From assembly GCA_040752415.1 (NCBI GenBank), contig JBFMGU010000128.1, positions 1 to 30,250 of the forward strand: DNA of 30,250 nt, given 5' to 3'. This DNA is from Myxococcota bacterium (GTDB lineage Bacteria > Myxococcota > JACRCW01). Shown here one piece after another: positions 12,102 to 25,583 of the stretch (positions are counted from its first letter, which is position 1; each line of letters starts with the position of its first letter). Both the position numbers and the translations under genes were made by a program. The notes under the pieces are model-generated. The model did not search any database. It was not told the origin of the DNA and saw only the letters and a list, made by a program, of their open reading frames with translations.

Positions 12102-14888
12102 GTGAGACGCCTACTCCTGGTGATGGCCTTGCTGTCGTCGGGAACGGCACATGCGCAAGCGGACGGCGGTGTCACCGCGCCCTCCGTCAAGCCGCCACGC
12201 CTGGTCTTCCAGCCCCGCGCCGACTTCCCGCTGCAAGCGCTCCGCGGTGAGCCGGCACGCACGTGCACGTTGCGCGTGACCGTCGACGAGGCGGGCGAGG
12301 TCGCTCGCGTGGAGGTGGTGGACACCGCCGGCGAGGAGCTGGACTGGGTGGCCATGGGCGCGGTGGCGTCCAGCGAGTTCGAGCCCGCCGAGGTGGACGG
12401 GGTTGCCACGCCCGTGCAGGTGGACCTCAAGCAGACGTTCACCGCCGGCGCGGCGCAGGTTCCCGACGCGGGAGTGCCGCCACCCGTCGAGGAAGTGGAC
12501 GCCGGACCCGCGTGGGCGCAGACCCCGCTGCCGCCGCCGTTCAGCGTGCAGGAGATGGCCTCCTTCTCGGGTGTCGTCGTGGACATGCAGTCCCGTCAGC
12601 CCCTTGGCGACGTGGAGGTCTACGTCCGGGTCTCCGAGGAGGAACCCATGGTGACCACCACCGACGAGCAGGGACGCTTCAGCCTCTCCCTGGTGCCGGC
12701 GGGCAGCTACCTGGTGGCGCTCACCGCAACCGGCTACGAGCAGTTCTCCACGACGGAAACCTTCCAGGCCGGCGAGCAGGTCCAGGCCACCTATGAGCTG
12801 CGCGCGCTGCGGGCCACGGCGTTCGAGACGGTGGTGCGCGACACCATCCGCCGCGTGAGCAAGGTGTCCATGGTGGTGGGCTCGGTCAGCCGCGTCGACG
12901 AGAAGGACCTGGTGGCCATGGCGCCGCAGAGCGGCAATGAGGTGCTGCGCACGGTGCCGGGCGTGATTGTCGTCGAGGAGGAGGGCGTGGGGTTGCGGCC
13001 CAACATCGCCTTCCGCGGGCTCAATCCCAACCGCAGCTCCAAGATCCTCGTGCTGGAAGACGGCGCGCCGGTCTCGCTCAATCCCTACGGTCGCCCCGAG
13101 GCGTATTACACGCCACCCATTGAGCGCATGGCCGGTCTCGAGGTGGCCAAGGGCAGCGACTCCATCCTGCATGGCCCGCAGACCATCGGCGGCGTGCTCA
13201 ACTACATCACCGCCGACCCGCCGCAGAAGCTCACCGTCATCAGCGACGCACGCCTGGGCACCTACGGCTACTGGCTCGGCCACTTCGCCATTGGCAACAC
13301 GCACGGGCCGGTGGGGTACCGCCTCGACGTCGTGCACCGGCGCTTCGTGGGGCCGCGTCACCTGGATCTCCAGCTCGTCGACGTGGCCGGCAAGGTGCGC
13401 GTGGCCTGGACTCCCGCCGCGGTCAGCACCTTCAAGCTCAACGTCTACGACGAGGATTCCGCCGCCACCTACCTGGGCCTCACCACGCCGCTGTACGAGG
13501 CCAACCCGTATGCCAGCCCCGCCATCCACGACCGCTACCTGATCCGTCGCTACAGCGGCGCCATCAACCACGACCACGCGCTCAACCGCTACGTGCGCAT
13601 CCAGGGGCTCCTGTACGGGAACAACATCGACCGACGCTGGTCGCGGCAGGACTACGACCGCGTGGACCGTGGCACCGCGTATGAGCGCATTGTCACCGCG
13701 CCGGGGCGCGAGCCCGACGACGACGGGGGCACGCTGTACTTCAAGGACAACCTGGTGCACCGCAACCGCGAGTACTGGGTGGCGGGCGTGGAGCCGCGGC
13801 TTATCCTGCGCATCCCGCTGCGCTACGTGGAGAGCGAGATCATCAGCGGCATCCGCCTGCACTACGAGCGCGCGCGGGAGGTGCGCCAGGAATCACCGCT
13901 GGGCTTCCGCTCCGGCGAGGTGATGGACGACGAGGACCGCACCGGCGTGGCGGTGGCCCTGTTCGCGCAATACCGCCTCACGCTCTTTGACACGCTGCGC
14001 ATCACGCCCGGTTTGCGGGTGGAGAACTTCTGGGCGCGTCGTCACATCCTGCGACAGCGGGTGCCCGCGGGTGGCACGTTCACCGGTCAGGACGTCGACG
14101 TGGCGAACAACAGCTACGTCTACGGCATCATCCCCGGGCTGGGTGTGGCGTACTCGCTGCTCGAGGGGCTGATGTTCTACGCGGGCGTGCACCGCGGGTT
14201 TGCGCCGCCGCGCAGCGCGGATGCCATTTCCCCGTCGGGGGAGGACCTCAAGCTGGAAGCGGAGCTGAGCTGGAACCTGGAGGCGGGAACGCGCCTGGCG
14301 CTGGGAGATTGGCTGCGCGCGGAGGGTGGCGTCTTCCTCATTGACTTCGAGAACCAGATCATCGCGCCCACGGAATCTGGCGGCGCCACGACGAGACGGC
14401 TGGAGAACTCGGGACGCAGTCGCCACACGGGACTCGAGGCCACGGTGACGTGGGACCTGGCGCGCCTGACGGGCTGGAAGTTCGAGCTGCCCTACAGCAT
14501 CAGCTACACGCTGGTGGAGGCGCGCTTCACCGCCGGCCCGTACGACGGAAACCGCGTGCCGTACGCGCCCCAGCACGTGGTCAGCTCCAACATCCGCTTC
14601 GTGCACCCGCTGGGCTTCAACATGCAGCTCACCGGCACGTACCTGAGCCCGCAGTACACTGACCCGGAGAACACCAAGGTCATCTCCGCCGACGGGACCA
14701 CGGGGCCCATTGGACGTCAGCTCATCGTCGACGGGCGCGTGGCCTACACGTTCGCGCCGCTGGGGCTCACCGGGTACGTGAGCGGGAAGAACCTGTTGGA
14801 CCAGAAGTACATCGCCTCGCGGGTGCCGGCCGGCGTGCAGCCGGGACCGCCGCGGCAGTTCATTGTGGGAGTCCGTGGAGAAATCTGA
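12102..14888 (+). CDS. TonB-dependent receptor, FecA-like plug/barrel, with N-terminal TonB_C-like and carboxypeptidase-regulatory-like domains
   Basis: Signal peptide ending AHAQA; KPPRL...LRVTVDEAGEV...FEPAEVDGVATPV (TonB_C); SGVVVD...TTTDEQGRFSLSLVPAGSY; plug EVLRTVPGV..EEEGVGLRPNIAFRGLNPNRSSKILVLEDG; terminal KNLLDQKYIASRVPAGVQPGPPRQFIVGVRGEI. Confidence 0.95.
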   Translation: MRRLLLVMALLSSGTAHAQADGGVTAPSVKPPRLVFQPRADFPLQALRGEPARTCTLRVTVDEAGEVARVEVVDTAGEELDWVAMGAVASSEFEPAEVDGVATPVQVDLKQTFTAGAAQVPDAGVPPPVEEVDAGPAWAQTPLPPPFSVQEMASFSGVVVDMQSRQPLGDVEVYVRVSEEEPMVTTTDEQGRFSLSLVPAGSYLVALTATGYEQFSTTETFQAGEQVQATYELRALRATAFETVVRDTIRRVSKVSMVVGSVSRVDEKDLVAMAPQSGNEVLRTVPGVIVVEEEGVGLRPNIAFRGLNPNRSSKILVLEDGAPVSLNPYGRPEAYYTPPIERMAGLEVAKGSDSILHGPQTIGGVLNYITADPPQKLTVISDARLGTYGYWLGHFAIGNTHGPVGYRLDVVHRRFVGPRHLDLQLVDVAGKVRVAWTPAAVSTFKLNVYDEDSAATYLGLTTPLYEANPYASPAIHDRYLIRRYSGAINHDHALNRYVRIQGLLYGNNIDRRWSRQDYDRVDRGTAYERIVTAPGREPDDDGGTLYFKDNLVHRNREYWVAGVEPRLILRIPLRYVESEIISGIRLHYERAREVRQESPLGFRSGEVMDDEDRTGVAVALFAQYRLTLFDTLRITPGLRVENFWARRHILRQRVPAGGTFTGQDVDVANNSYVYGIIPGLGVAYSLLEGLMFYAGVHRGFAPPRSADAISPSGEDLKLEAELSWNLEAGTRLALGDWLRAEGGVFLIDFENQIIAPTESGGATTRRLENSGRSRHTGLEATVTWDLARLTGWKFELPYSISYTLVEARFTAGPYDGNRVPYAPQHVVSSNIRFVHPLGFNMQLTGTYLSPQYTDPENTKVISADGTTGPIGRQLIVDGRVAYTFAPLGLTGYVSGKNLLDQKYIASRVPAGVQPGPPRQFIVGVRGEI

Positions 14889-16421
14889 ATGCGCATGCAA
14901 CGGATGACATTCACGCTGTTGTCGACGGTGCTGGCCTGGGGCCATCCCGCTGTCGCCGCGGCTGTCGAGAAGAGCACGCGTTCCACCCCCATTCCCTCCG
15001 CGCAGGAGCTCGCGGAGAACGTGGACCTGCTGGGCGGCGCGGTGGAAACGGAGCTGATTTTCCAGGAGGTCTCCGGCGGGCGTCCCTCCGTCGTCAACGG
15101 CGCGGTTTCCGACGGAGCGGCGGACCTCATGATTCGCGTGGAGCTGCGCACGCGTGTGGACGGTGTGATGGGCATGCTGAAGGCGGGCGAGACCGTTCCC
15201 TACCAGCGCGTGCGCGTCACCATCGAGAATCTCACCACCACCGACGTCGACAAGACCCTCACCGTGGAGCTGCCGCCGCAGGTCACGCGTGCGCACGGGT
15301 GGAGCTACGCCAGCAACATCCTGCTGCCTCCCCAGCAAGGCACCACCAATCCGTTCGAGGACCAGTACCGCATCACCGTCACCGTCCAGCCGCGCGAGAC
15401 CATGGTCCTGCACGACGACGCCACGCCGCCGAGTCCGCTCTGGCGCAGTGCATCACCCCTGACCGCCATCGACGAGGACACGGTGAGCTTCGCGGGCGTG
15501 ACGGCGCTGCCGGCGGGGAATGTCGACGAGGCCACGGCGCGGACCACCGCGTTCACCAGCGCCAAGGGCCTGCTCTCCACCGACGTCGCCGGGGCGCGCA
15601 CCGTCTTCACCACCACGCTGCAGCCCTGGATGCTGGGGCTCGAAGACGCCACGCTCTACGCGGCCTCGCACGGTCTGACCACGGAAGTGCTGGCCGACCT
15701 CGAGGACAATCCGCGTCTGGCGCTGGAGCAGCAGACCGTGCGCGGCGACTGCAACCGCGACGGAATCCAGGGTGCCGAGTGCCAGCAATGGGCGGACAAG
15801 GGCATGCAGCGCGGATTCGTGATGGCGGTGCTGGCGCACATGGATGCTGCGTTGCAGCGTGTTGACGACGGGGATCTCTCCCTGACGGCGGGCGCCGCCC
15901 ACGAGTGGGACCTGGCGTGGGGATACTTCCAGGCGGTCCGCTCCACCGCGGTGAGCCGGGAGACCAACTGTCTCACTGGCCCTCCCGCGGAGCTGACGCT
16001 GCAGGATTGTGCGATGGTGGCCGCGCTGGATGACGCCTTTGTCGACGGCATGAACGCCATCCTCCTCGACGACGGGAACGGGCTGGGCGGGTTTGCGCGC
16101 ACCGTCGAGACGCGGCTGGTGAAGGTCTACTACTACGCCACCACGCGCTACCTGATGAAGATGCTGAAGGCGGTGGCTGACGTCGTCACCTATAACAGCG
16201 CGCGCGCTGAGGGCCGTGCCTTCTCGACGAGCATTGCCCACACGCTCCCGGCCGCGGACCGCACCGCGGTGGACCAGGCCTTCGCCGTGCGTGACCCGGC
16301 GAGCTTCAATGCCGCCGTCGCTGTCGACGTGGTGAGCCGGCTCAACAACGCGCTGGAGGGCACGCACCTGGGTGCCGCCGAGCTGTTGGATCCCCAGGAC
16401 ATGACGGAGGTGGTGCCATGA
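14889..16421 (+). CDS. Exported fusion protein: P19/Tp34 (Iron_transport)-like N-terminal domain plus FEA1/DUF4856-like helical domain
   Basis: Signal peptide; GETVPYQRVRVTIEN...YASNILLP...YRITVTVQP..VLHDD (P19-like); QWADKG...HEWDLAWGYF...RY...RAEGRAF (FEA1/DUF4856-like). Starts at the base after the receptor stop. Confidence 0.7.
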   Translation: MRMQRMTFTLLSTVLAWGHPAVAAAVEKSTRSTPIPSAQELAENVDLLGGAVETELIFQEVSGGRPSVVNGAVSDGAADLMIRVELRTRVDGVMGMLKAGETVPYQRVRVTIENLTTTDVDKTLTVELPPQVTRAHGWSYASNILLPPQQGTTNPFEDQYRITVTVQPRETMVLHDDATPPSPLWRSASPLTAIDEDTVSFAGVTALPAGNVDEATARTTAFTSAKGLLSTDVAGARTVFTTTLQPWMLGLEDATLYAASHGLTTEVLADLEDNPRLALEQQTVRGDCNRDGIQGAECQQWADKGMQRGFVMAVLAHMDAALQRVDDGDLSLTAGAAHEWDLAWGYFQAVRSTAVSRETNCLTGPPAELTLQDCAMVAALDDAFVDGMNAILLDDGNGLGGFARTVETRLVKVYYYATTRYLMKMLKAVADVVTYNSARAEGRAFSTSIAHTLPAADRTAVDQAFAVRDPASFNAAVAVDVVSRLNNALEGTHLGAAELLDPQDMTEVVP

Positions 16422-17182
16422 GACTCGCGAGCCTCCTGATGATCCTGGTGACGCTCGCTTCCGCCGGTTGCGACGAGTGCGAGTATTCCGCGGAGTGCAG
16501 TGGCGTCGACGCGAGCATCACGCGCAGCGACGCGGGCACCGGGACGCCGACGCCAGCGAGTGTCGCCGTCGAGCGTGCGGTGACGTTGGTGGAGCGGCCC
16601 ATTGCCAACGGCCTGGCGTCGCTGAAGCTGGAGATCCTCCCGCCGCAGGACGTGGAGGCGCCCCCGGGCTTGCCTCTGGGGGACTTCCTGGCGTCGGGCA
16701 GCGCGGACATCTGGATCCACGCCAACATTCGCTACAGCGCGGCGCTCGTCGGTGGCCGCAACGTGGGGGACATGGTGCCGTACCTGCGCGTGGGACTGGA
16801 GATCACCAACGAGGATGACGGTCGCCGGCTCAGCACCAACCTGGTGCCGGTGGTTTCCGTCGCCAACGGGGTGTTCTACGCGCGCAACCTCTCGCTTGGC
16901 AGCAGCGTGGGAGCCGCCACCTCCCATTACAGCGTGCGCGTGGTGATTCGCCGTCCAGCCCTCCTCGGCGCGGACGCGGACGCTGTGTCGCCAGGAATCG
17001 TGATTGGCGAGGACATGGTTGGCGCGGAGGCAGGGACGTTCCTCGACGACGTGGCCACCGTGATCACCAGTCACTTCTCGCTCGATGATCTGCGCGAGCA
17101 GCAGGTTTCCACGGGAACCGGAGGGACGCCGTCCACGGGCGGGACCAGCAGCTCGTCCGGTGGGGGATACATCGCGCCCTGA
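16418..17182 (+). CDS. Lipoprotein with P19/Tp34-like domain and a Ser/Thr/Gly-rich tail
   Basis: Lipobox SAG|C18; SADIWIHANI...GDMVPYLRVGLEITNE...NLVPVV...GVFYARNLSL...HYSVRVVIRRP; ATGA overlap with the upstream gene. Confidence 0.7.
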   Translation: MRLASLLMILVTLASAGCDECEYSAECSGVDASITRSDAGTGTPTPASVAVERAVTLVERPIANGLASLKLEILPPQDVEAPPGLPLGDFLASGSADIWIHANIRYSAALVGGRNVGDMVPYLRVGLEITNEDDGRRLSTNLVPVVSVANGVFYARNLSLGSSVGAATSHYSVRVVIRRPALLGADADAVSPGIVIGEDMVGAEAGTFLDDVATVITSHFSLDDLREQQVSTGTGGTPSTGGTSSSSGGGYIAP

Positions 17183-18603
17183 TGGAGTCTCGTCGTCGTG
17201 CCGCGGTGGCCGTGGGCCTGTTGACGCTGGTGGCGACGGCGGCGCGAGTGGCTCTCCGCGCGCGAGGTCTCGAGGGATTCGACTCCGTTGGCTTCGCACA
17301 GGCGCTGCACAGCTACGATCTCACCGCGCGGACGCCACATTTTCCCGGCTATCCCGTCTACATCCTGGTCGCGCGCGTCTTCAGCGCACTGGGATTCTCC
17401 GACGTCGACGCGCTCATCCTTCCCGGCGCGTTGGGCTCGGCGCTCCTGGTGCCCGCGTGCGCGTGGACCGCGTGGCGCCTCGCGGATGAGCGGGCGGCGG
17501 TGGTGGCCGCGCTGCTCACGTCGGTGATGTCGGGTCTGCACCTGGCGGCCGCGCGTCCGCTCTCCGAGGGCCTGGGTGTGGTCCTGCTGGGAGTGGCGGG
17601 CGCGCTCTGTGTGGATGCGTACGTGGCCCGTCGTGCACGCAGCGCGGGAGCCGCTGGTGTGGTGCTAGGGCTGATGCTGGGCGTGCGACTGGCGTGGTTG
17701 CCCGCGGCGGTGGGGTTGGCCGCGCCGCTCGTCGTGAGACGCGTGGAAGGGCACGCGCTGCTGCTGGGCGGCGTCTTGGGCGTGCTGGGCTGGGCGGTGC
17801 CCATGACGTTGGTCGTCGGTTGGGGCGACCTGCTGGCCAGCGCGGAACGTATGCTCACGGGACACTTCACGTCGTGGGGCGGTTCCGTGGCGTCGGAGGA
17901 CCTAGACCTCCCGCGGTTGCTGGCGGTGCTTTGGGGGGTGTGGGCCCACGGGTTGGGCGGACCGTGGTCCGGCGACGCGATGACGACGTCACGCGCGATT
18001 GCCGGTGCGGGACTCCTGCTGGCGTGGGTGCTGCTCCCGACCGCACGGCGTCATGCGGGCGGCCTGCCCCTGTGGGGCGCGTGTGCCGGTGCGTTGGCCT
18101 ATCTCGTCGTGGGGGCGAATCCCGACAACCCTCGTCACGTCACGCAGCTCCTCGTCCCCCTGGTGCCGCTGCTGGGAATCGGCTTGACGAGGATCCGCGC
18201 GGGAGCAGTGATCGTGGCGGGTTTGCTCGGCCTTCCGACGATTTCCGTCGCGGTGGAGCAGGCCACCGTGCTGAATCCCGCGGAGCAGTCCGCGCTGTTC
18301 ATGGCCACGTTGCGTCCGTCGGAGGGGCTGCGCTTCTACGGGTGGACCACCATGCGCACCGTCCGCGCCCGCGCCCCCCTCGTCGACGCGCGCCTGGTGG
18401 AAACGCTTCCTGCCGCCGTGGACGACCTGCGTCAGCATCCCGTGCCTGCGCGCACCTGGGTCTTCTTTGACAGCCGCCTGAAGGACAAGCGCCGCAAGGA
18501 TTTCGACTTCACGCCGGTGGAGACCTTTCGTCGCAGTCCGTACGTCGACCCCGCCGGCGCGGCCATCACCATCTACCGGTACCAGGGCGAGCGTCAGCGA
18601 TGA
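17182..18603 (+). CDS. Polytopic membrane protein, GT-C fold glycosyltransferase-like (PMT_2/DUF2723-like)
   Basis: First loop EGFDSVGFAQALHSYDLTARTPHFPGYPVY; ARPLSEGLG; LGLMLGVR; NPRH; about 10-12 hydrophobic segments; TGATG overlap with the upstream gene. Confidence 0.75.
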   Translation: MESRRRAAVAVGLLTLVATAARVALRARGLEGFDSVGFAQALHSYDLTARTPHFPGYPVYILVARVFSALGFSDVDALILPGALGSALLVPACAWTAWRLADERAAVVAALLTSVMSGLHLAAARPLSEGLGVVLLGVAGALCVDAYVARRARSAGAAGVVLGLMLGVRLAWLPAAVGLAAPLVVRRVEGHALLLGGVLGVLGWAVPMTLVVGWGDLLASAERMLTGHFTSWGGSVASEDLDLPRLLAVLWGVWAHGLGGPWSGDAMTTSRAIAGAGLLLAWVLLPTARRHAGGLPLWGACAGALAYLVVGANPDNPRHVTQLLVPLVPLLGIGLTRIRAGAVIVAGLLGLPTISVAVEQATVLNPAEQSALFMATLRPSEGLRFYGWTTMRTVRARAPLVDARLVETLPAAVDDLRQHPVPARTWVFFDSRLKDKRRKDFDFTPVETFRRSPYVDPAGAAITIYRYQGERQR

Positions 18604-18622
18604 TTTTGAATTTCAATATCAC
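18600..18622. promoter_or_regulatory. Tandem Fur-like boxes (distal), overlapping the upstream stop codon
   Basis: ATGATTTTGAATTTCAATATCAC: two 17-mers offset by 6 bp. Confidence 0.65.
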
Positions 18623-18690
18623 GCAGACTTTGCGCAGGTCGGACTGAAGCTCGGGGAAACCCTGCCAATCCACGACGTCAGTACCCGAGC

Positions 18691-18746
18691 TTGACAGCCG
18701 TTGATACGGCCCGATATCAGGGCCTGAAAATGAAATTCAATTTCAA
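18691..18746 (+). promoter_or_regulatory. Sigma70-type promoter with tandem Fur-like boxes over the predicted start site
   Basis: TTGACA (18691)-18 nt-TATCAG (18715); CTGAAAATGAAATTCAATTTCAA at 18724-18746. Confidence 0.72.
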
Positions 18747-18762
18747 CATGAGGAAGGCGACG

Positions 18763-19728
18763 ATGCGAGTCACGTTCTGGGCAGGTTCTTTGTTGTTCTC
18801 TGCGGCGGTGGGGATGGGATGCGGGACCACGGGAGACGGAGATGGCACCACGTCCAGCTCGGGCGGCGCCTCCTGTGATGCCAATGCCAGCAGCTACGCG
18901 CCGTTCAGCGCGGCCAATTTCACCACGGAGCAGGCGCAGGTGGCCGCGTACGGGCGCATCAGCGCGCTGCGCAAGACGGCCACGTTTGCCAAGAGCGACT
19001 TCACCGCGCTGAAGACCGACTACGACACGCACTTTGCGTCGGCGGTGCAGGGACTCACCGGCGTGCCCAGCTGGGAGAACGCCAACGTGGGCACGGAGAT
19101 CCACACGCTCATCAACAACGCCATCAACCGCGGCCTGGACACCAACGACACCACCGACATCGCGGAGCTGGGGCAGATCATCGAGAAGAGCCTGATTCGC
19201 TACCTGTACCTGGCCACCTACTCCCGCGTGATGACGACGAGCGGCGACGCGCAGGCCAACTGGGACAAGGTGTTTGGCATCTACGGTCGCAGTGAGGACG
19301 GGGCCACCAGCGCTGGCATCTCCGGCTCGGTGAAGGGCCGCGACGACAACTACTCGCTCACCAACAACGACAAGGTGTTCAGCGCGCTCATCAAGGGCCG
19401 CTGCGCCATCGTTGACGGCGACAACGCCGCGCTCACCGCCGCCCGCACCGAGATCACCACCGCCATGGACGAGAGCATGGCGTACTCCGGCGCGCGCTAC
19501 TTCAAGAAGATCTCCGAGGGCGGCGCCACGCGCGTGGACCTCGCCGAGGGCGGCACGTACTGGTACGCGGTGGAGCGTCGGATGCAGGCCGCGGACGCCG
19601 CCACCATCCGCGCCTGGGTGGACGCACTGATGCCCGGCGGCGCACGTGAGGATGAGCTGCCCGACGTCGACGGCGCTTCCACCGCGCTGGGACTCATGCG
19701 CTCCAACTTCTCGCTCCCCGCGCTCTGA
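18763..19728 (+). CDS. Lipoprotein, FEA1/DUF4856-like, probably iron-regulated
   Basis: SD GAGGAAGG; signal ending VGMG|C; GQIIEKSL...ANWDKVFGIYG...KGRDDNY...VFSALIKGRCAIVDGD...ARYF...LAEGGTY. Confidence 0.75.
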   Translation: MRVTFWAGSLLFSAAVGMGCGTTGDGDGTTSSSGGASCDANASSYAPFSAANFTTEQAQVAAYGRISALRKTATFAKSDFTALKTDYDTHFASAVQGLTGVPSWENANVGTEIHTLINNAINRGLDTNDTTDIAELGQIIEKSLIRYLYLATYSRVMTTSGDAQANWDKVFGIYGRSEDGATSAGISGSVKGRDDNYSLTNNDKVFSALIKGRCAIVDGDNAALTAARTEITTAMDESMAYSGARYFKKISEGGATRVDLAEGGTYWYAVERRMQAADAATIRAWVDALMPGGAREDELPDVDGASTALGLMRSNFSLPAL

Positions 19729-19731
19729 ACG

Positions 19732-20928
19732 CTACGCCGCCACGGTGAGGGGACGCTGCGCCCGACGGTCGCGCTCCGACCAGTAGCGACGGACCCACAC
19801 CGGGCGCACGTCCTCCACCCGTCGTGACAGCACGGCCCGCGTCCACTCGGTGAGCCGTGCGTTTCCCTCCGCGAACGCCTGCGCGGGTGAGGGCGGGTTC
19901 GCCACCCAGAGCTGCTCCAGAGCGTCCCGCTCCGACGAGAACAGCGGCAGCAGCTCGGCGGGATTGCACATCACCGCACGGTGCAGCGCCTCGTGTCGCC
20001 ACCACAGCGAGTCATCCGCCACGTCGGTGGGAGTGCCCGCGTTCATGGGCTCCGCCACGCGCACCGGCTTGAACAGCGACGTGCACGGTGCCGCCGTGCC
20101 GGTGACCCAGTGTGAATCCCCGTCGGGACGCAGCCGCGCCACCCAGCTGGACGTCGTCTGCGAGCTCGCCGCGATGCCACCGCCGTGCATGCATGGTGCG
20201 GACATGGCGCCGTTGAGGAACGCGTAGTCCGGCCACGGACCGTGAGCGCCGTGGTCGCGCAGCAGGGACATCATCTGCCCCACGCCGGTTGCGCCCTGCG
20301 CCAGGGACTGGGTGCGTGCTCGTCGGACAGCGCAGGCGGAGACCGTGGTCTTCAACCAGTCCGAGTGCTTCTCCGCGAACCCCGGAATGGTGAGCCCGTT
20401 GGAGATGCCGCGCGCGCCGCGCACCTCCTCGGTGGCCCAATGCGCGCCGGCGGTCTCCAGCACCGTGGCGCCACGTCGGTCCGCGACGATGAAGCTGTTG
20501 TGATACGTGAACGCGCGATCCTCGTGGCCGCAGCCGCCGCCTTGTCCGTGGGTCTTGAGCAGCGTGGTGATGACGTCGAGGGCCTGGTGCCGGTCGGCGG
20601 CGCGCTCCAATGCCAGGCGGAGCAGGTCCATTCCGGTGAGCCCGGTGCGGGCGTAGGGCTCGCGCGTGAAGACCGCCTCGTTGCCGATGATGACGCCGTG
20701 CTCGTTGGCGCCAATCTCCGCGCCCCACATCCAGAACGGTCGACTCAGCAGCGTGGCGTGTGTGCGGGCCACCTGCGGAATCTCCACGTGGGTGCACCGA
20801 ACGGTGCTGCCCGCGGCGTGCTCGCGCGCAGGGTGCCACTCGAGGAGCTGGGCCTCGTTGGGGTCGCGGTCGGAGTTCTTGGCGAACAGCACGCCATCCG
20901 GCTGCACGACGACAACGGTGTCACACAT
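19732..20928 (-). CDS. Secernin-like C69 family peptidase (Ntn hydrolase)
   Basis: N-terminal MCDT nucleophile, FAKNSDRDPNEAQ, LSRPFWMWGAEIGANEHGVIIGNEAVFT, LTGMDLLRLALER, YHNSF, PCTSLFKP, LWWRHE. Confidence 0.93.
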   Translation of the reverse strand: MCDTVVVVQPDGVLFAKNSDRDPNEAQLLEWHPAREHAAGSTVRCTHVEIPQVARTHATLLSRPFWMWGAEIGANEHGVIIGNEAVFTREPYARTGLTGMDLLRLALERAADRHQALDVITTLLKTHGQGGGCGHEDRAFTYHNSFIVADRRGATVLETAGAHWATEEVRGARGISNGLTIPGFAEKHSDWLKTTVSACAVRRARTQSLAQGATGVGQMMSLLRDHGAHGPWPDYAFLNGAMSAPCMHGGGIAASSQTTSSWVARLRPDGDSHWVTGTAAPCTSLFKPVRVAEPMNAGTPTDVADDSLWWRHEALHRAVMCNPAELLPLFSSERDALEQLWVANPPSPAQAFAEGNARLTEWTRAVLSRRVEDVRPVWVRRYWSERDRRAQRPLTVAA

Positions 20929-20931
20929 GGC

Positions 20932-21930
20932 TCAACCCGCCCGCCACGGGATGCGCAACACCACGTCGCCGCCCTCCAGGAGTACCGCGTCGCCTTCCAC
21001 GCGTGCGCGACCCCGCACCTCGCCACCGCGTGTGATGGGCACGGTGGTTCCGTTCACCAGCGACACCATGACCAGCTCAACCGGCCCATAGGTGGCGTTG
21101 GGATGCGTGGTGAGGGTGAGCGGCAGCACCACGTGGTTCTCGTCGAGGAACGCGGGCACGCTGAGCGGCTCGGCAATCTCCAGCTTCAACGCCACGGCTC
21201 CGGGCTCATCTCCCTGGATTCGCAGCATGCGGAACTGCGGCGTGTCACCAACGCGCATCTCCAGCGCAATCATGTTTCCCGACGGAGAGAACGCCCCGCA
21301 CACGCGGGAAGGCGCGGGCGAGGGACCCAGCAAGCGCTTCACCGTCCCGCTCTCGAGGTCCAACAGCTCCAGGGAGCCATCACATCGTTCCTCTCGTGCG
21401 TCCATGAACAGCGCGCGCTTGCCGTTCACGTCGAGCGCGAGCACGGGCGCGAGGTGCGGGTTCATCCCAGCTGCAAATCCGGCCGCGCGCGTGCGGGTCC
21501 TCGTCGGGAGGTCCACGCGGTGCAACGTCTTCCCCGGGACGTCGGCCACCAGCGCGGTGGTGCCGTCGCCACTGACGCCCACGGTCTGACCGGGAACGCG
21601 CATCACCACCGTTTCTCCGTCGATGAACAGCACCTCCTCGACGAGTGCCGGAATCCGCCCCGGCTGTCCCCGGTGCACCGCGACGAGACCGCCCGCCGCC
21701 ACGGGGTTGACGTGGAAGGACTGCCGTGAGTCCAACACCAGCGGCCGCGCGTCCTTCCCGCCTTCCTCGACGTAGACGCCCGGCGCCACGCTCCCCTCCG
21801 CGCGGAACACCAGCGCTCCGTCGTGGCGGATGACCTGGCTGACCCGCGCGCCCTTCTGCGCGAGGCGCGGGATGATGACCTCGGGGGCCTGGAACGCGGG
21901 GAGGCCGCTGACCTTAAGCTGGAGCGTCAA
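20932..21930 (-). CDS. Hypothetical beta-propeller-like (TolB/WD40-like) protein
   Basis: SD GGGAGGGA then TTG at 21930; blade-like motifs VSGDGTTALV, LDVNGKRALF, FSPSGNMIAL, FLDENHVV; overlaps the upstream stop and ends 3 nt before the secernin-like gene. Confidence 0.65.
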   Translation of the reverse strand: MTLQLKVSGLPAFQAPEVIIPRLAQKGARVSQVIRHDGALVFRAEGSVAPGVYVEEGGKDARPLVLDSRQSFHVNPVAAGGLVAVHRGQPGRIPALVEEVLFIDGETVVMRVPGQTVGVSGDGTTALVADVPGKTLHRVDLPTRTRTRAAGFAAGMNPHLAPVLALDVNGKRALFMDAREERCDGSLELLDLESGTVKRLLGPSPAPSRVCGAFSPSGNMIALEMRVGDTPQFRMLRIQGDEPGAVALKLEIAEPLSVPAFLDENHVVLPLTLTTHPNATYGPVELVMVSLVNGTTVPITRGGEVRGRARVEGDAVLLEGGDVVLRIPWRAG

Positions 21931-22834
21931 CGCGCGTCCCTCCCGCCAGCTTGTGCCGCTTGGGCACCACCTCGACGATCTTCGTCCCCAGGCTCTCGAA
22001 GATCTGCGCGCGACCATTCCCCGCGTCGGGGAGGTTGAGCAGCGCGGGTTCCGTGAGCCCGGGCTCGCGCGGAATCACACCGTCGCCGGGGGTGCCGTAG
22101 TAGTCGGTGGTCTTGAGCGCTTTCCACGAGCGGTCAAAGTCCGCCGCGCGCCACACGTGGTCCTTCTCCACGCCCCAGCCGTGCTTGGCAATGAGATACC
22201 GCTCGCCGTTCTGCTCGAAGTAGCCCTCGATGACGGCGTAGTGCGCGCGCTGACCGCCGTAGTCGCCGGGGTTCCCGTTCCAGTCGACGTCGAACGCCAC
22301 GATGGCGGGATGTCCCTTGTCCAGCACTTTGTAGAGGTCCTCCAGCGTGGCGCGCTCATGCACCGAAGCGGCGTACCCGAAGTGCGCTGCCGTCTGCGCC
22401 AGCTGCTTGGCGGTGAACATCTCACCCTGCGACGTGAAACCCGCCTTCTTCGCGTAGTCCAGCACGCGCTCGTCGGTGGTGGGGGCGAAGTTGAAGTTCT
22501 TGCCCTGTCCGTGCAGGTCCGCGTCGGAGATGAGCGGCGCGGCGTTCTTGGGATTCTTGATGTGCCAGGAGTCCATCACCATGCCCAGCGCGTAGAGTCC
22601 GCACGTCGGTCCAATCTGCACGCGCTGCGGCACGTCCGCCTTCTTGGCCCGCGCAATGATCTCCGCACGCGTGATGCCCGTGGTGCGCGTGGTGCCGGGG
22701 GCGTTGATCTCCATGCCGTCGGGGGCGCGGAGTGGTGTCGAGGGCGTGGTGACGGGGGTAGGCCGCGTCACCGTGGGGGTGAAGCCGGGATTGGAAAGCC
22801 GTCCGGGCTGGGGCCGCAGGGTCACGGGAGGCAT
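21914..22834 (-). CDS. Papain-like (C39-like) cysteine protease resembling eukaryotic ACTMAP
   Basis: QIGPTCGLYAL (Cys78), GFTSQGEMFT, VAFDVDWNGNP...GQRAHYAVIEG (His198), YLIAKHGW; Pro/Thr-rich N-terminal extension with no signal peptide. Confidence 0.8.
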   Translation of the reverse strand: MPPVTLRPQPGRLSNPGFTPTVTRPTPVTTPSTPLRAPDGMEINAPGTTRTTGITRAEIIARAKKADVPQRVQIGPTCGLYALGMVMDSWHIKNPKNAAPLISDADLHGQGKNFNFAPTTDERVLDYAKKAGFTSQGEMFTAKQLAQTAAHFGYAASVHERATLEDLYKVLDKGHPAIVAFDVDWNGNPGDYGGQRAHYAVIEGYFEQNGERYLIAKHGWGVEKDHVWRAADFDRSWKALKTTDYYGTPGDGVIPREPGLTEPALLNLPDAGNGRAQIFESLGTKIVEVVPKRHKLAGGTRVDAPA

Positions 22835-22926
22835 GGCGCGACACGCTAGCAGGGCGTGTTGCGTCGCAGAAGAGCGCGACGTTCAGACGCTTGACCTCCT
22901 TTCTCCGCACGACCGACAAAGCGCCC

Positions 22927-24222
22927 ATGTTGCTCCGTCTCGCCGCGGTTGTGGCCCTCACGCTGACGTTCCCCACGACGTCGCGCGCGGATGCGTCGCC
23001 ACAACAGGCAGTGGCCGTGTTCCCGGTTTCCGTCGTCGTCGCTGACCTGGACCCCACGGCTTCCAGCACGCTGCTCACCAACGCTCTGACGCTGAAGTTG
23101 ACCCAGCAGGAGGTGTTCACGGTCATCAGCGCCGACGAGGTGGCCGCGCTGGTGCAGAACGAGGCCAACCGCATCCAGATGGGCTGTGAGGAGACCTGTC
23201 TCGCCGAGCTCGCGGGGGCGTTGGGCGCACGGTTGCTGGTGACCGGGGAGGTGAACCGCGTCGGGAGCACGCTGGTCTGGAGCGTCAGCCTCATCGACCA
23301 GTCCAACGGCACCGTGGTCCGCCGCGTCAGCGTGAAGGGCAGGTCCGTGCAATCGCTCAACGCGCAGGCGGAGGAGGTTGCCAACGTCATCGCGGGCAAG
23401 TCGGAGCAGTTGGTTCTCGAGGGGGAAGGCGCGCAGGAACGGCTGGGTTTCGTCGACAAGAAGGATTTCCGGGAGTTCGTGACGTACCGCAACGCGGTTC
23501 CTCAGCTGAGCACGTCCGACGCGCTCACGCAGTTCATCATCGAGCGCAACTCGGAGAGCCCCCGACTCGCGGTTCTCGAGGCGGGACTCCTTTCCAGTGC
23601 GGCATTGTTGGCGGCGGCCGCCGGCGTCATCCTGGTCATGTTCGGTCCGCTGGCCGCGTTCAACGACGTGGCGAACTCCGAGCTGGAGGAGCCGGTCAAC
23701 CTGTGGCTTGCGGGTCACGGCGCGCTGTTGGGCGCGGTGGCGTTGGGGCTGGGAGTGGCCGGCTTTGTCGTCGTCATCTGGGACCTCTTGGACATTGGCG
23801 CGGTGCGCGTGCGGTCGGATGGTTGCTGCCGGGATGACTCACGCATCGTCGAGGCGGCGCGTGATGACTCGGTGCAGCGGGCGTCCGCGTTGGCCGTGGT
23901 GCTCTCCAGCGTGGGGGCGGTGGCGCTGATTCCCATCTTCCTCGTCGGAATCCTGGTGCCCAGCGAGACGGCCATCACCGGCCTCCAACTCTTCGAGAAC
24001 GCACAAGGTCTCAAGCCCGGCACCCTGGAACCGCCCTTCACGCTGCGACTCATCCCCGGCGTCCCCACGTGCCCGTGCCTGCCCATCTGCGGCCTCGGGA
24101 CCTTCGCGGTGGTGACGTGCTGGCCTCTTGTCGTCGGAGCGCCATTGGGGCTGGGCCTGTTGCTCCGACCGGGTCCCGCGCCCGTGGAGGACGTGAGTGA
24201 GGACGAGGGAGGTCTGAAATGA
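22927..24222 (+). CDS. Membrane protein, paralog A: signal peptide, CsgG/FlgO/DUF2380-like periplasmic domain, about four TM segments
   Basis: ATG 22927; GCEETCLAELAGALGARLLVTGEVNRVG; IIERNSES; DGCCRDD; hydrophobic C-terminal half. Confidence 0.75.
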   Translation: MLLRLAAVVALTLTFPTTSRADASPQQAVAVFPVSVVVADLDPTASSTLLTNALTLKLTQQEVFTVISADEVAALVQNEANRIQMGCEETCLAELAGALGARLLVTGEVNRVGSTLVWSVSLIDQSNGTVVRRVSVKGRSVQSLNAQAEEVANVIAGKSEQLVLEGEGAQERLGFVDKKDFREFVTYRNAVPQLSTSDALTQFIIERNSESPRLAVLEAGLLSSAALLAAAAGVILVMFGPLAAFNDVANSELEEPVNLWLAGHGALLGAVALGLGVAGFVVVIWDLLDIGAVRVRSDGCCRDDSRIVEAARDDSVQRASALAVVLSSVGAVALIPIFLVGILVPSETAITGLQLFENAQGLKPGTLEPPFTLRLIPGVPTCPCLPICGLGTFAVVTCWPLVVGAPLGLGLLLRPGPAPVEDVSEDEGGLK

Positions 24223-25583
24223 TCACGCTCACGACGCTGCTCATGGTGACCATGGCGCAATCCCCGGCGACGTCCACGGAGCCGCAGCGTCGTGCGGTGG
24301 TCCTTCCGCTGCAGTTGCGCGCGGATCCTCCGGAGGACGTGCGGGTGGCCGCGCCCGGCGTGGAACGCGCTCTCACCGACGCGGTGGCGCGACACGCTCC
24401 GTTCCCCGTGGTCGGCCGCTCCGAGCTTGCGGCACTACTCAATGTCGAGGTGCGACAGCAGCTCACGGGATGCAACGCGGACTCGTGCATCGCCGAAGTG
24501 GCCGACGCGCTGGGTGCGGAGCTGGCCGTCATCCCCAAGCTGGACCTCGCCCACGGCGTGTGGACGTTGCGCACCTCGCTCGTCGAGCGGAGGACTGCGT
24601 CCGCGTTGCGTCGCGCTGGCGTGCAGGCGCGCTCCCTGGATGCGCTGGTGAACTCGCTGGACTCGGTGGCCCGCCAGCTCGTTGGCGGACCGGGCGCCTC
24701 GCTCTCGGATTCCAGGCTCGCGGAACGGCTCGGCACCGACGCGGAAGGCATGGCCCTGCTCCGTCAGCGGGTGGCGGCCGCGCCCGACGTCGACGTGGCG
24801 GAGACCTGGACGGACATCATCATCGAGCGCAACCGCGAGTCACCCGTGCTGGCGCTGTTGGAAGCGGCGGCGTTCCCCGCCGGGGCCGCGTTGCTGTGGC
24901 TGGTGACGCCGTGGACGGGAATTCCGCTCGGGATCGTCGTGGGCGCGGGGCTGGGGCTGGCGGCGCCACCGCAGATCACGCTGTTGCCCTTGTTCGCGGC
25001 GTTCGTGATTCCGGTCGTGGCGCAGGGGGTGTTGCTCATCCCGATCGGCGCGTCTCTCGTCGTGGCGGTGATCGACGCCTTGGACCTTGGGCGCGTGCCG
25101 GTCTGGCGTCAGGGGTGTTGTCGCGACGAGACGCGTGTGCGCGCCGCCACGGATCCTTCCATGGGTCACCGCGCGGCGGCGGTGATTGCCGCGTTGGGTG
25201 GCGTGGCGCTGGGGATGCTCGTCGTGGCGCACCCGTTCCTGGTGCTCCCTGCGGCCCTGCTCGGCGCCGTCGTGGGCGTGGGCGCGCAGGCGGCGCTGGG
25301 ACCGGGTGTGTGGGGGCCCGCCATCGTCCTCGACGCCACGCTCAGCACCGAGCCCGCCAAGCCGGCCGCGCTGGCCTTTGCGTCCTCGGCGTGGGTGGGG
25401 ATGGCGATCGTGCCACCGTTGATGGCGGCGTCCTTCGTGACAGCGGTGATGCTGATGCTGACGGAACGCTCCCGCCTCGTCGACGAGGAGCCGCCCGCGG
25501 TCACTTCGCCACGGCCTGCCGCGTCAGGTACTCCGCCATCGCCTCGCCAAACGCCGGCAGATCAGGCGGGCGCCGGGAAGTGA
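24219..25583 (+). CDS. Membrane protein, paralog B, same architecture
   Basis: SD GGAGG, ATGA overlap; GCNADSCIAEVADALGAELAV; IIERNRES; QGCCRDE. Confidence 0.75.
   Translation: MITLTTLLMVTMAQSPATSTEPQRRAVVLPLQLRADPPEDVRVAAPGVERALTDAVARHAPFPVVGRSELAALLNVEVRQQLTGCNADSCIAEVADALGAELAVIPKLDLAHGVWTLRTSLVERRTASALRRAGVQARSLDALVNSLDSVARQLVGGPGASLSDSRLAERLGTDAEGMALLRQRVAAAPDVDVAETWTDIIIERNRESPVLALLEAAAFPAGAALLWLVTPWTGIPLGIVVGAGLGLAAPPQITLLPLFAAFVIPVVAQGVLLIPIGASLVVAVIDALDLGRVPVWRQGCCRDETRVRAATDPSMGHRAAAVIAALGGVALGMLVVAHPFLVLPAALLGAVVGVGAQAALGPGVWGPAIVLDATLSTEPAKPAALAFASSAWVGMAIVPPLMAASFVTAVMLMLTERSRLVDEEPPAVTSPRPAASGTPPSPRQTPADQAGAGK

Follow-up and report, generated by a model that had tools for sequence, protein, structure and literature searches.

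A 30,250-nucleotide stretch of DNA from a Myxococcota bacterium (GTDB lineage Bacteria; Myxococcota; JACRCW01; assembly GCA_040752415.1, contig JBFMGU010000128.1, positions 1 to 30,250 of the forward strand; hereafter the window) encodes on its reverse strand a 306-aa cysteine peptidase (P0001; 21914..22834, ATG start, TAA stop). P0001 truly belongs to the ACTMAP-like family PF21646, the family of the eukaryotic actin maturation protease (ACTMAP), as one of its bacterial members, and has its catalytic and signature residues intact. Directly downstream lies the gene of a signal-less protein with a predicted seven-bladed beta-propeller fold, which among the searched genomes of the phylum was found only where the protease family is also present. 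In the reading that we favour, with a probability of about 0.5, P0001 would be a cysteine peptidase of the cytoplasm that trims N-termini and has a dedicated propeller partner as its substrate or regulator. The homology itself is not new, as bacterial members are already contained in Pfam and in automatic annotation; new are the protease-propeller module and the strict co-occurrence of its two components. A literature search found no publication on bacterial ACTMAP-like proteins.

A bacterial branch of the ACTMAP family

A preliminary description of this DNA, made from its letters alone, had proposed that the open reading frame (ORF) encodes a bacterial relative of the eukaryotic ACTMAP family and that the match extends beyond generic C39 peptidase motifs. 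Both proposals are borne out by profile searches. P0001 matches the Pfam model ACTMAP-like_C (PF21646) with 72.9 bits (cut-off 27, E 3.9e-20) over profile positions 2-120 of 121, and a whole-genome scan of the source genome recovered the match at 67.5 bits in one gene copy. Weaker Pfam matches were obtained to Peptidase_C39_2 (PF13529, 29.9 bits, above its cut-off) and BtrH_N (15.3 bits), and Peptidase_C39 (PF03412) scored 14.8 bits, under its cut-off of 22. At the level of profiles, the affinity for ACTMAP is thus specific when measured against ordinary C39 families, with a lead of 43 bits over C39_2. No NCBIfam family scored above its cut-off for the protease. Neither PADLOC nor PHROGs matched the protease or its partner, so that membership of a known defence system and an origin from phages are both unsupported.

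A phmmer search with P0001 alone, run against a library of 1.84 billion proteins, reached 292 representative proteins at E<=1e-3. Several of these are named "actin maturation protease" by UniRef or NCBI, including proteins of beetles (P0224, 9.1e-9; P0263, 7.5e-7), rotifers (P0233, P0235), and the bug Lygus (P0265). The search also reached chytrid fungi (P0199, 1.6e-11; P0240; P0252), the amoebozoan Clastostelium (P0221), the cryptophyte Rhodomonas (P0262), and an MMETSP protist transcript (P0277). In BLASTP comparisons, P0001 shares 28% identity with axolotl ACTMAP and with Drosophila ACTMAP, at E 2e-14 in each case.

All four motifs quoted in the preliminary description are present in the order given there, behind a Pro/Thr-rich N-terminus (aa 1-55): QIGPTCGLYAL at aa 73-83 (containing Cys78), AGFTSQGEMFT at aa 131-141, HPAIVAFDVDWNGNP..GGQRAHYAV at aa 175-201 (containing His198), and YLIAKHG..HVW at aa 213-228. 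The axolotl ACTMAP (P0333) shows the same pattern, with IQEGPQCGLVAL, RGYTAQGEMFS, and PVLVPYDEDCNHEP..GGHRAHWAA. To place these motifs in the family, conservation was read from an alignment of 43 bacterial rows (42 related loci and the window) and 25 named eukaryotic ACTMAPs. Q73, C78, G79, G137, G194, and H198 are invariant in both groups (43/43 and 25/25), and E138 (42/43 and 25/25) and D182 (41/43 and 25/25) are nearly so. Near-invariant within the bacterial rows are also F140, P189, and W228 (42/43 each), D184 and S236 (41/43 each), and A197. The signature residues of the bacterial rows recur in 22-25 of the 25 eukaryotic rows, amounting to about 15 shared positions, and because these positions are common to bacterial and eukaryotic sequences, the match exceeds the Cys/His motifs of the C39 clan. 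Gln73, Cys78, and His198 are the predicted oxyanion residue, nucleophile, and general base, respectively. Position 218 is a His in 42/43 bacterial rows, and among the 25 eukaryotic ACTMAPs it is a Gln in 17, matching the "SKQG" quoted for human ACTMAP in the preliminary description, and a His in seven.

In phylogenies that included eukaryotic sequences, the window protein was placed outside the eukaryotic clade. Two quick maximum-likelihood trees, both unrooted, were calculated from 92 and 80 rows. The first was built with 14 of the 42 loci and with every full-length representative that has the Cys motif (60 in all); for the second, 21 rows were dropped and nine domain pieces were added. All named eukaryotic rows (17 in the first tree and 15 in the second) fall on one side of a branch with Shimodaira-Hasegawa-like approximate likelihood ratio test (SH-aLRT) values of 96 and 98, and in both trees this deepest split separates them from P0001 and the Myxococcota rows. 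Ten unlabelled rows are located on the eukaryotic side, and those that could be named by look-up are eukaryotic. The ACTMAP-family proteins of chytrids, Clastostelium, and Rhodomonas and the MMETSP transcript group with the animal ACTMAPs, and the eukaryotic side of the family thus includes chytrid, amoebozoan, and cryptophyte members. In one account, the N-terminal maturation of actin including the cleavage step is called exclusive to animals (PMC11735805), and another describes plants as lacking ACTMAP (PMC13557074).

P0001 is not an ACTMAP orthologue, because it lies on the bacterial side of the deepest split of the family and in a genome without eukaryote-type actin. The source genome, that of a soil-type myxobacterium, comprises 11.0 Mb in 520 contigs and is 96.8% complete, and a search with the actin model PF00022 revealed no eukaryote-type actin in it. 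The best match reached 42.8 bits over profile positions 28-190 only, and the same model also matches in 7 of 14 control bacteria, which would put the hit at the level of bacterial actin-fold proteins. Actin of the producing cell was considered as a substrate and rejected on account of this partial match and of the matches in the control bacteria.

Predicted structure and domain layout of the protease

The AlphaFold2 (AF2) model of the protease, calculated from a 132-row alignment, has a mean predicted local distance difference test score (pLDDT) of 92.2 and a predicted template modelling score (pTM) of 0.84. Disorder in the model is limited to the first ~30 residues, with pLDDT values of 46-84 over aa 1-50 and of 95-99 over aa 206-306. 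The model indicates a papain-fold (clan CA) cysteine peptidase. In a structure search of the ESM Atlas, the second-best cluster after the protein's own is a chordate "Actin maturation protease" (template modelling (TM) score 0.59, 208 aligned residues), and ordinary C39 clusters follow behind it at TM scores of ~0.5. Among solved structures, only C39-like and other clan CA peptidases were retrieved; searches of the PDB by sequence, profile, or fold did not turn up an ACTMAP structure.

A PDB sequence search with the single protein returned nothing relevant, and a profile gave only a cathepsin L-like protein (1.3e-7), PeiR (3.9e-4), and LahT (0.01). The nearest solved fold is 3erv from Bacillus anthracis (Z 15.1, rmsd 2.8, 160 aligned residues), followed by primitive phytochelatin synthase (2btw, Z 14.3), LahT (6mpz, Z 13.7), and 5xe8 (Z 13.4). 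Other fold neighbours include PCAT1, ComA, PeiR, the Citrobacter CdiA-CT peptidase toxin 8ssk (Z 12.7, rmsd 2.2, 129 aligned residues), and staphopain C (8oig, Z 11.9). Foldseek agrees on clan CA neighbours at E values of about 1e-4 and also lists the staphopain structures 1cv8 and 1pxv.

The start of the protease gene is sound, because an in-frame TGA lies 49 nt upstream of the ATG at 22834, which is the first start codon thereafter, and because homologues have the beginning "MP.." in common. The N-terminal region (aa 1-55; 22670..22834, reverse strand) starts with a conserved "MPP.." and continues with a Pro/Thr-rich linker of low model confidence, followed by the likewise conserved "RAPDGMxxNAP". 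Most family members (loci L010-L050 and the window) share the beginning "MP", behind which come two to four residues drawn from Pro, Leu, Val, and Ile and then a linker rich in Pro, Thr, and Ser. The linker is followed by a conserved segment that differs between clades: the close clade has "APDGMxxN", and the Myxococcaceae/Archangiaceae clade has "RPDPLAVTxANGTxF". In a comparison of N-termini from 43 loci, neither a signal peptide nor a lipobox is visible in P0001, and the absence of an export signal predicts a cytoplasmic location of the protease.

The core ACTMAP-like_C domain (aa 69-205; 22220..22630, reverse strand) is delimited by the Pfam envelope, with the same coordinates obtained in the genome-wide scan. 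It contains Gln73, the predicted nucleophile Cys78 (codon 22601-22603), and His198 (codon 22241-22243), as well as the signatures GEMF (aa 137-140) and FDVD (aa 181-184), all on the reverse strand. The C-terminal part of the fold (aa 206-306; 21917..22219, reverse strand) carries (H/Q)G at aa 218-219, Trp228, and Ser236, as in eukaryotic ACTMAPs. An insert of ~35 aa (about aa 244-278) and a "KIVEVVP" strand in this part are typical of the close bacterial clade.

A coupled beta-propeller gene

The partner gene (20932..21930, reverse strand, 332 aa), identified by neighbour clustering, profile hidden Markov models (HMMs), and AF2 modelling, starts with a TTG at 21930 and thereby overlaps the end of the protease gene by 17 nt. 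A Shine-Dalgarno-like GGGAGGG (21938..21944, reverse strand) was read within the protease coding sequence, 7 nt before this TTG. In 15 related loci, the partner homologue starts between -19 and +2 nt from the protease stop. This arrangement indicates that the protease and propeller genes are translationally coupled.

The partner is the sole flanking gene that recurs in many loci. Its cluster comprises members from 15 loci and the window, and every other real cluster of flanking genes spans four loci at most. In the close clade (L010-L027), its HMM matches 15 of 18 loci. Across the phylum of the window, the HMM matches 16 of 401 genomes, all of which are among the 32 protease holders; the 369 genomes that lack the protease gave no match. 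A second, unlinked propeller copy (G001:C145:36009-36926, reverse strand, 245 bits) is found in another genome, which belongs to the same family as the source genome, and is the only extra copy seen in the 401 genomes. In the three close-clade loci without partner (L021, L023, and L027), a convergent glycosidase-like gene or msrA follows the protease gene in its place. In one genome (G087), the protease gene occurs twice: the copy at L026 has the propeller partner, and the copy at L021 lacks it and is followed by the convergent glycosidase-like gene.

The AF2 model of the partner (pLDDT 92.7, pTM 0.91) is all-beta, with about 28 strands forming seven blades. No signal peptide is visible in the protein, NCBIfam gave nothing above cut-off, and Pfam left the family unmatched except for PD40 in 1 of 16 members. 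Foldseek retrieved known propellers (E about 1e-8 to 1e-7). The best matches in the ESM Atlas are S9 peptidase propellers, including a "dipeptidyl aminopeptidase/acylaminoacyl peptidase" (TM scores 0.69-0.73; 0.57 for TolB), and a VIA structure search yielded ties at Z 19-21 with dozens of seven-bladed propellers, among them the S9 peptidase 5yzm (Z 20.2, 16% identity) and tricorn (1n6d, Z 19.9). Because such Z scores are common to dozens of unrelated seven-bladed propellers, the likeness of the modelled partner to S9 peptidases is not specific and is treated here as a lead only.

The partner has a long form of ~330 aa and a short one of ~230 aa. Both carry an N-terminal tail of the pattern (H/S)(R/K)L-x4-LP, in which, among the 16 members, one Leu and the Pro are conserved in 14/16 each and the R/K position and the other Leu in 12/16 each, so that the tail is far more strongly conserved than the protein as a whole. 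The tail looks flexible, because the first 10 residues of the model have a low pLDDT (56). Over the same 16 loci, the mean pairwise identity is 30% for the partner vs. 66% for the protease. A fusion of partner and protease was sought in the long homologues P0137 and P0142 and rejected, as an hhalign comparison of their N-terminal parts with the partner profile gave probabilities of 0.4 and 0.1, respectively; P0137 has only a PQQ_2 match under the threshold (23.6 vs. 27.6 bits). Longer proteins related to the partner were also sought, and none turned up, although this is weak evidence.

Distribution and domain fusions

A word-indexed search found 200 relatives of the protease. PF21646 is present in every one of the 120 that were listed; where these bear a name, it is "C39 family peptidase" or "hypothetical", and they come from metagenome-assembled genomes (MAGs) of Myxococcota type. 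A scan with one genome per species identified 42 loci (L010-L051), almost all of them in Myxococcota-type MAGs; named hosts are Myxococcota, "Deltaproteobacteria", Myxococcaceae, Archangiaceae, Polyangium, and one Terriglobia MAG. Within the phylum of the window, PF21646 is present in 32 of 401 genomes with a patchy distribution (for example 13/172, 7/11, and 4/20 in three families). In the phylum of the Terriglobia genome, it was found in 1 of 201 genomes, namely the seed genome itself. A set of 14 well-known control genomes gave no match. The ACTMAP family is thus wider than its eukaryotic members and includes a coherent, well-conserved bacterial branch that is concentrated in Myxococcota among the genomes searched. 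P0001, a small bacterial homologue that folds well in the model and comes with a built-in candidate client, could be a convenient protein for studying how ACTMAP-type enzymes are built and how they select their substrates.

Domain fusions were counted among 150 listed representatives of the 292 phmmer matches. Two proteins from metagenomes (P0146, 908 aa; P0149, 847 aa), which match P0001 at E about 1e-26, have the Phage_GPD, Phage_base_V, and Gp5_trimer_C domains of a VgrG spike of type VI secretion and, at the C-terminus, an ACTMAP-like/C39_2 domain. They correspond to "evolved VgrG" effectors of this peptidase family, and an ACTMAP-like domain can therefore serve as a delivered effector. 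A GNAT acetyltransferase is combined with one or two ACTMAP-like domains in three further proteins from metagenomes (P0150, 990 aa; P0253, 522 aa; P0210, 496 aa). The second tree places the VgrG fusions and P0150 on the bacterial side, and P0210 and P0253 on the eukaryotic side with long branches. In animals, ACTMAP acts just ahead of the GNAT enzyme NAA80. The GNAT fusions look like Rosetta-stone fusions of the ACTMAP and NAA80 steps, and their domain composition would fit a link of the family to N-terminal acyl chemistry. The two fusion types provide two independent leads, one to a delivered effector and the other to a coupling with N-acetylation. Some distant homologues in the alignment have signal peptides or membrane anchors.

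Comparison with known peptidase systems

Human ACTMAP is described as a cytosolic protein with C132 as nucleophile and an AlphaFold model resembling bacterial cysteine proteases (PMC13367750). Its activity on the actin N-terminus, the removal of N-acetyl-Met or N-acetyl-Cys, is known (PMC13367750, PMC11735805), and profilin 2 and NAA80 are named as its partners (PMC11735805). P0001 shares with ACTMAP the Gln/Cys/His residues, GEMF, (F/Y)DxD, AH(W/Y)A, (H/Q)G, Trp, and Ser signatures at ~28% identity over the catalytic domain, the position of this domain behind a Pro-rich disordered N-terminus, and the lack of an export signal, in keeping with the cytosolic location of ACTMAP. It differs in having a His instead of the usual Gln at position 218 and a Trp instead of Lys at position 220, in the extra C-terminal insert of ~35 aa, in the dedicated propeller partner, and in a host genome without eukaryote-type actin.

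Bacterial C39-like peptidases provide the nearest solved folds, and NCBI labels close homologues as "C39 family peptidase", but P0001 is set apart from them by ACTMAP-specific motifs, a C-terminal extension, and a C39_2 score 43 bits below that of the ACTMAP-like model. It is not fused to an ABC transporter, and no gene for a double-glycine leader peptide lies nearby. The S9 acylaminoacyl peptidases and prolyl oligopeptidases resemble the module in the association of a seven-bladed propeller with a peptidase. Acylaminoacyl peptidases release N-acylated amino acids. Unlike in these enzymes, the predicted catalytic protein of the module is a cysteine peptidase with a papain fold rather than a serine alpha/beta hydrolase, and peptidase and propeller are encoded by two separate genes.

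The operon layout is also reminiscent of the staphopain-staphostatin system, in which a papain-fold cysteine protease and an all-beta protein without signal peptide are encoded one after the other and co-transcribed, and staphopain C is among the fold neighbours of P0001. Staphopains, however, have a signal peptide and a pro-peptide, and the staphostatin fold is a small barrel of eight strands, whereas P0001 has no signal peptide and its partner is a predicted seven-bladed propeller. StbD-CT, delivered by contact-dependent inhibition, and the type VI effector Cpe1 are described as C39-type antibacterial peptidase toxins that cleave GyrB/ParE (bioRxiv 10.64898/2026.05.07.723447). As in StbD-CT/StbI and Cpe1, a C39-like peptidase gene is followed here by the gene of a cytosolic protein, and a flexible linker precedes the peptidase domain; P0001 lacks a delivery domain, however, and its partner is a 332-aa propeller instead of a small beta-sheet immunity protein.

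Proposed function and alternative explanations

We propose that the protease works as a two-gene module with the coupled propeller encoded directly downstream. By analogy with ACTMAP, it would make a limited cut at or near the N-terminal end of a protein. The propeller may be the dedicated substrate of the protease or a subunit that presents the substrate or regulates the enzyme, and it would be bound through its own conserved, flexible N-terminal tail. The preliminary description had also raised the possibility of an N-acylated bacterial substrate, which would be a plausible idea. A bolder version regards the pair as a prokaryotic counterpart of ACTMAP and actin, in which the peptidase would remove an acylated (formyl- or acetyl-Met) residue or a short tail from the propeller and thereby switch the function of this client; eukaryotic ACTMAP would then descend from such bacterial maturases, and the VgrG-fused cousins would inject the same chemistry. 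We consider this extended scenario speculative and improbable as a whole. The module itself could reveal N-terminal protein processing of a kind undescribed in bacteria.

Several observations weigh against the proposed module. Position 218 is an uncertain candidate for the third catalytic residue, as it is a His in bacteria and mostly a Gln in eukaryotes. The partner is absent from three loci of the close clade (L021, L023, and L027) and from all 24 of the loci L028-L051, and since the protease thus occurs in many loci without it, the partner cannot be the only substrate of the family. Furthermore, the faster evolution of the partner also fits an inhibitor or immunity protein, and the two metagenomic homologues P0146 and P0149 carry the domain at the C-terminus of VgrG, i.e. 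as a delivered effector.

The latter two points lead to the main rival, a toxin-immunity pair, in which the peptidase would be delivered into competitor or prey cells and the propeller would be a cytoplasmic immunity protein or inhibitor that protects the producer. This explanation is possible, if on balance rather doubtful. It can draw on the precedents of StbD-CT/StbI, Cpe1, and staphopain/staphostatin, on published antibacterial C39 toxins with cytosolic immunity proteins (bioRxiv 10.64898/2026.05.07.723447) together with the structural neighbour 8ssk, and on the VgrG spikes carrying an ACTMAP-like domain. The patchy distribution of the protease (32/401 genomes) and a second gene that evolves fast, overlaps the first, and exists in two forms also speak for such a pair. 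However, VgrG (PF05954) was found neither in the source genome nor in five other pair-holding genomes (0/6), TssC (PF05943) was not found in the source genome, and the protease itself lacks PAAR, VgrG, Rhs, and CdiA domains as well as a signal peptide and a lipobox. Intact protease genes without the partner occur in 3/18 close-clade loci and in 24/24 loci of the set L028-L051. Orphan immunity genes are common for toxins of this type, but orphan partner genes were not seen in any of the 369 genomes without protease, the one extra copy being that of G001. In addition, a 332-aa propeller is unlike the small StbI, and PADLOC and PHROGs remained without match. An exported enzyme that trims the N-terminal residue of actin in eukaryotic predators or prey, as envisaged in the preliminary description, is a related proposal that we regard as very unlikely. 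It would agree with the family membership, the conserved signature residues, and the VgrG-fused homologues elsewhere, but is unsupported because no export signal, eukaryote-type actin, or type VI genes were found, the last in a search of six pair-holding genomes. P0001 also has no delivery domain and lies outside the eukaryotic clade, and an actin-directed effector leaves the co-encoded cytoplasmic partner unexplained.

In a further alternative, the propeller would be a gating or regulatory subunit which, in the manner of S9 oligopeptidases, acylaminoacyl peptidases, or tricorn, limits the peptides or N-termini that reach the catalytic site of the separately encoded peptidase. The S9 peptidase propellers at the top of the Atlas search and the presence of 5yzm and tricorn among the VIA ties point in this direction, and translational coupling and strict co-occurrence would suit a stoichiometric complex. 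Nevertheless, this reading is unlikely: the Z scores are shared with dozens of unrelated propellers, PD40 was matched in only 1/16 partners, neither the hhalign comparisons nor the search for longer proteins revealed a fused propeller-peptidase, and many family members occur without a propeller. An ordinary C39 double-glycine leader peptidase, or a recent transfer from a eukaryote to a bacterium or contamination, is the least probable of the explanations considered and is strongly disfavoured. The weak matches to Peptidase_C39 and to the peptidase domains of PCAT and ComA would be in line with a leader peptidase, but PF03412 stays below its cut-off (14.8 vs. 22 bits), and neither an ABC transporter, among the window ORFs scanned, nor a conserved small peptide gene was detected nearby. 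Transfer or contamination is contradicted by a GC content of 0.67-0.69 at the protease locus, which is like that of its flanks and the rest of the window, by the 42 related loci, almost all from Myxococcota-type MAGs, and by the split from the eukaryotic sequences at SH-aLRT values of 96 and 98. With these alternatives weighed, the N-terminal-trimming peptidase with a dedicated propeller remains the reading that we prefer, with its peptidase activity, its N-terminal specificity, the physical binding of the propeller, and the role of the tail as predictions.

Neighbouring genes in the window

A scan of positions 19400-23100 predicted no promoters and no terminators. Downstream of the partner lies the gene of a 398-aa putative N-terminal nucleophile (Ntn)-type hydrolase (19732-20928, reverse strand), which is probably co-transcribed with the partner, because it starts 3 nt after the partner's stop codon. 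The protein begins with "MCDT" and has weak AAT/C45 matches (PF03417, 22.5 bits; NCBIfam C45_proenzyme, 27.4 bits). On the other side, and divergent from the protease gene, are two tandem paralogues on the forward strand (22891-24222 and 24219-25583), which overlap by 4 nt and share 31% identity over 336 aa (E 2e-26). Each of them encodes an N-terminal DUF2380-like domain, hydrophobic segments, and a "GCCRD" motif. For the Ntn hydrolase gene, the DUF2380-like genes, and nine other ORFs of the window, tblastn gave no match in the related loci. Further along the window, an iron-uptake-like cluster (12102-19728, forward strand) encodes a 928-aa TonB-dependent receptor, which has a CarboxypepD_reg domain and, unusually, an N-terminal TonB_C domain. 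Also encoded there are two proteins of Fe2+ transport (PF10634) and, as weak matches, a membrane protein like TMEM260 and a lipoprotein related to FEA1.

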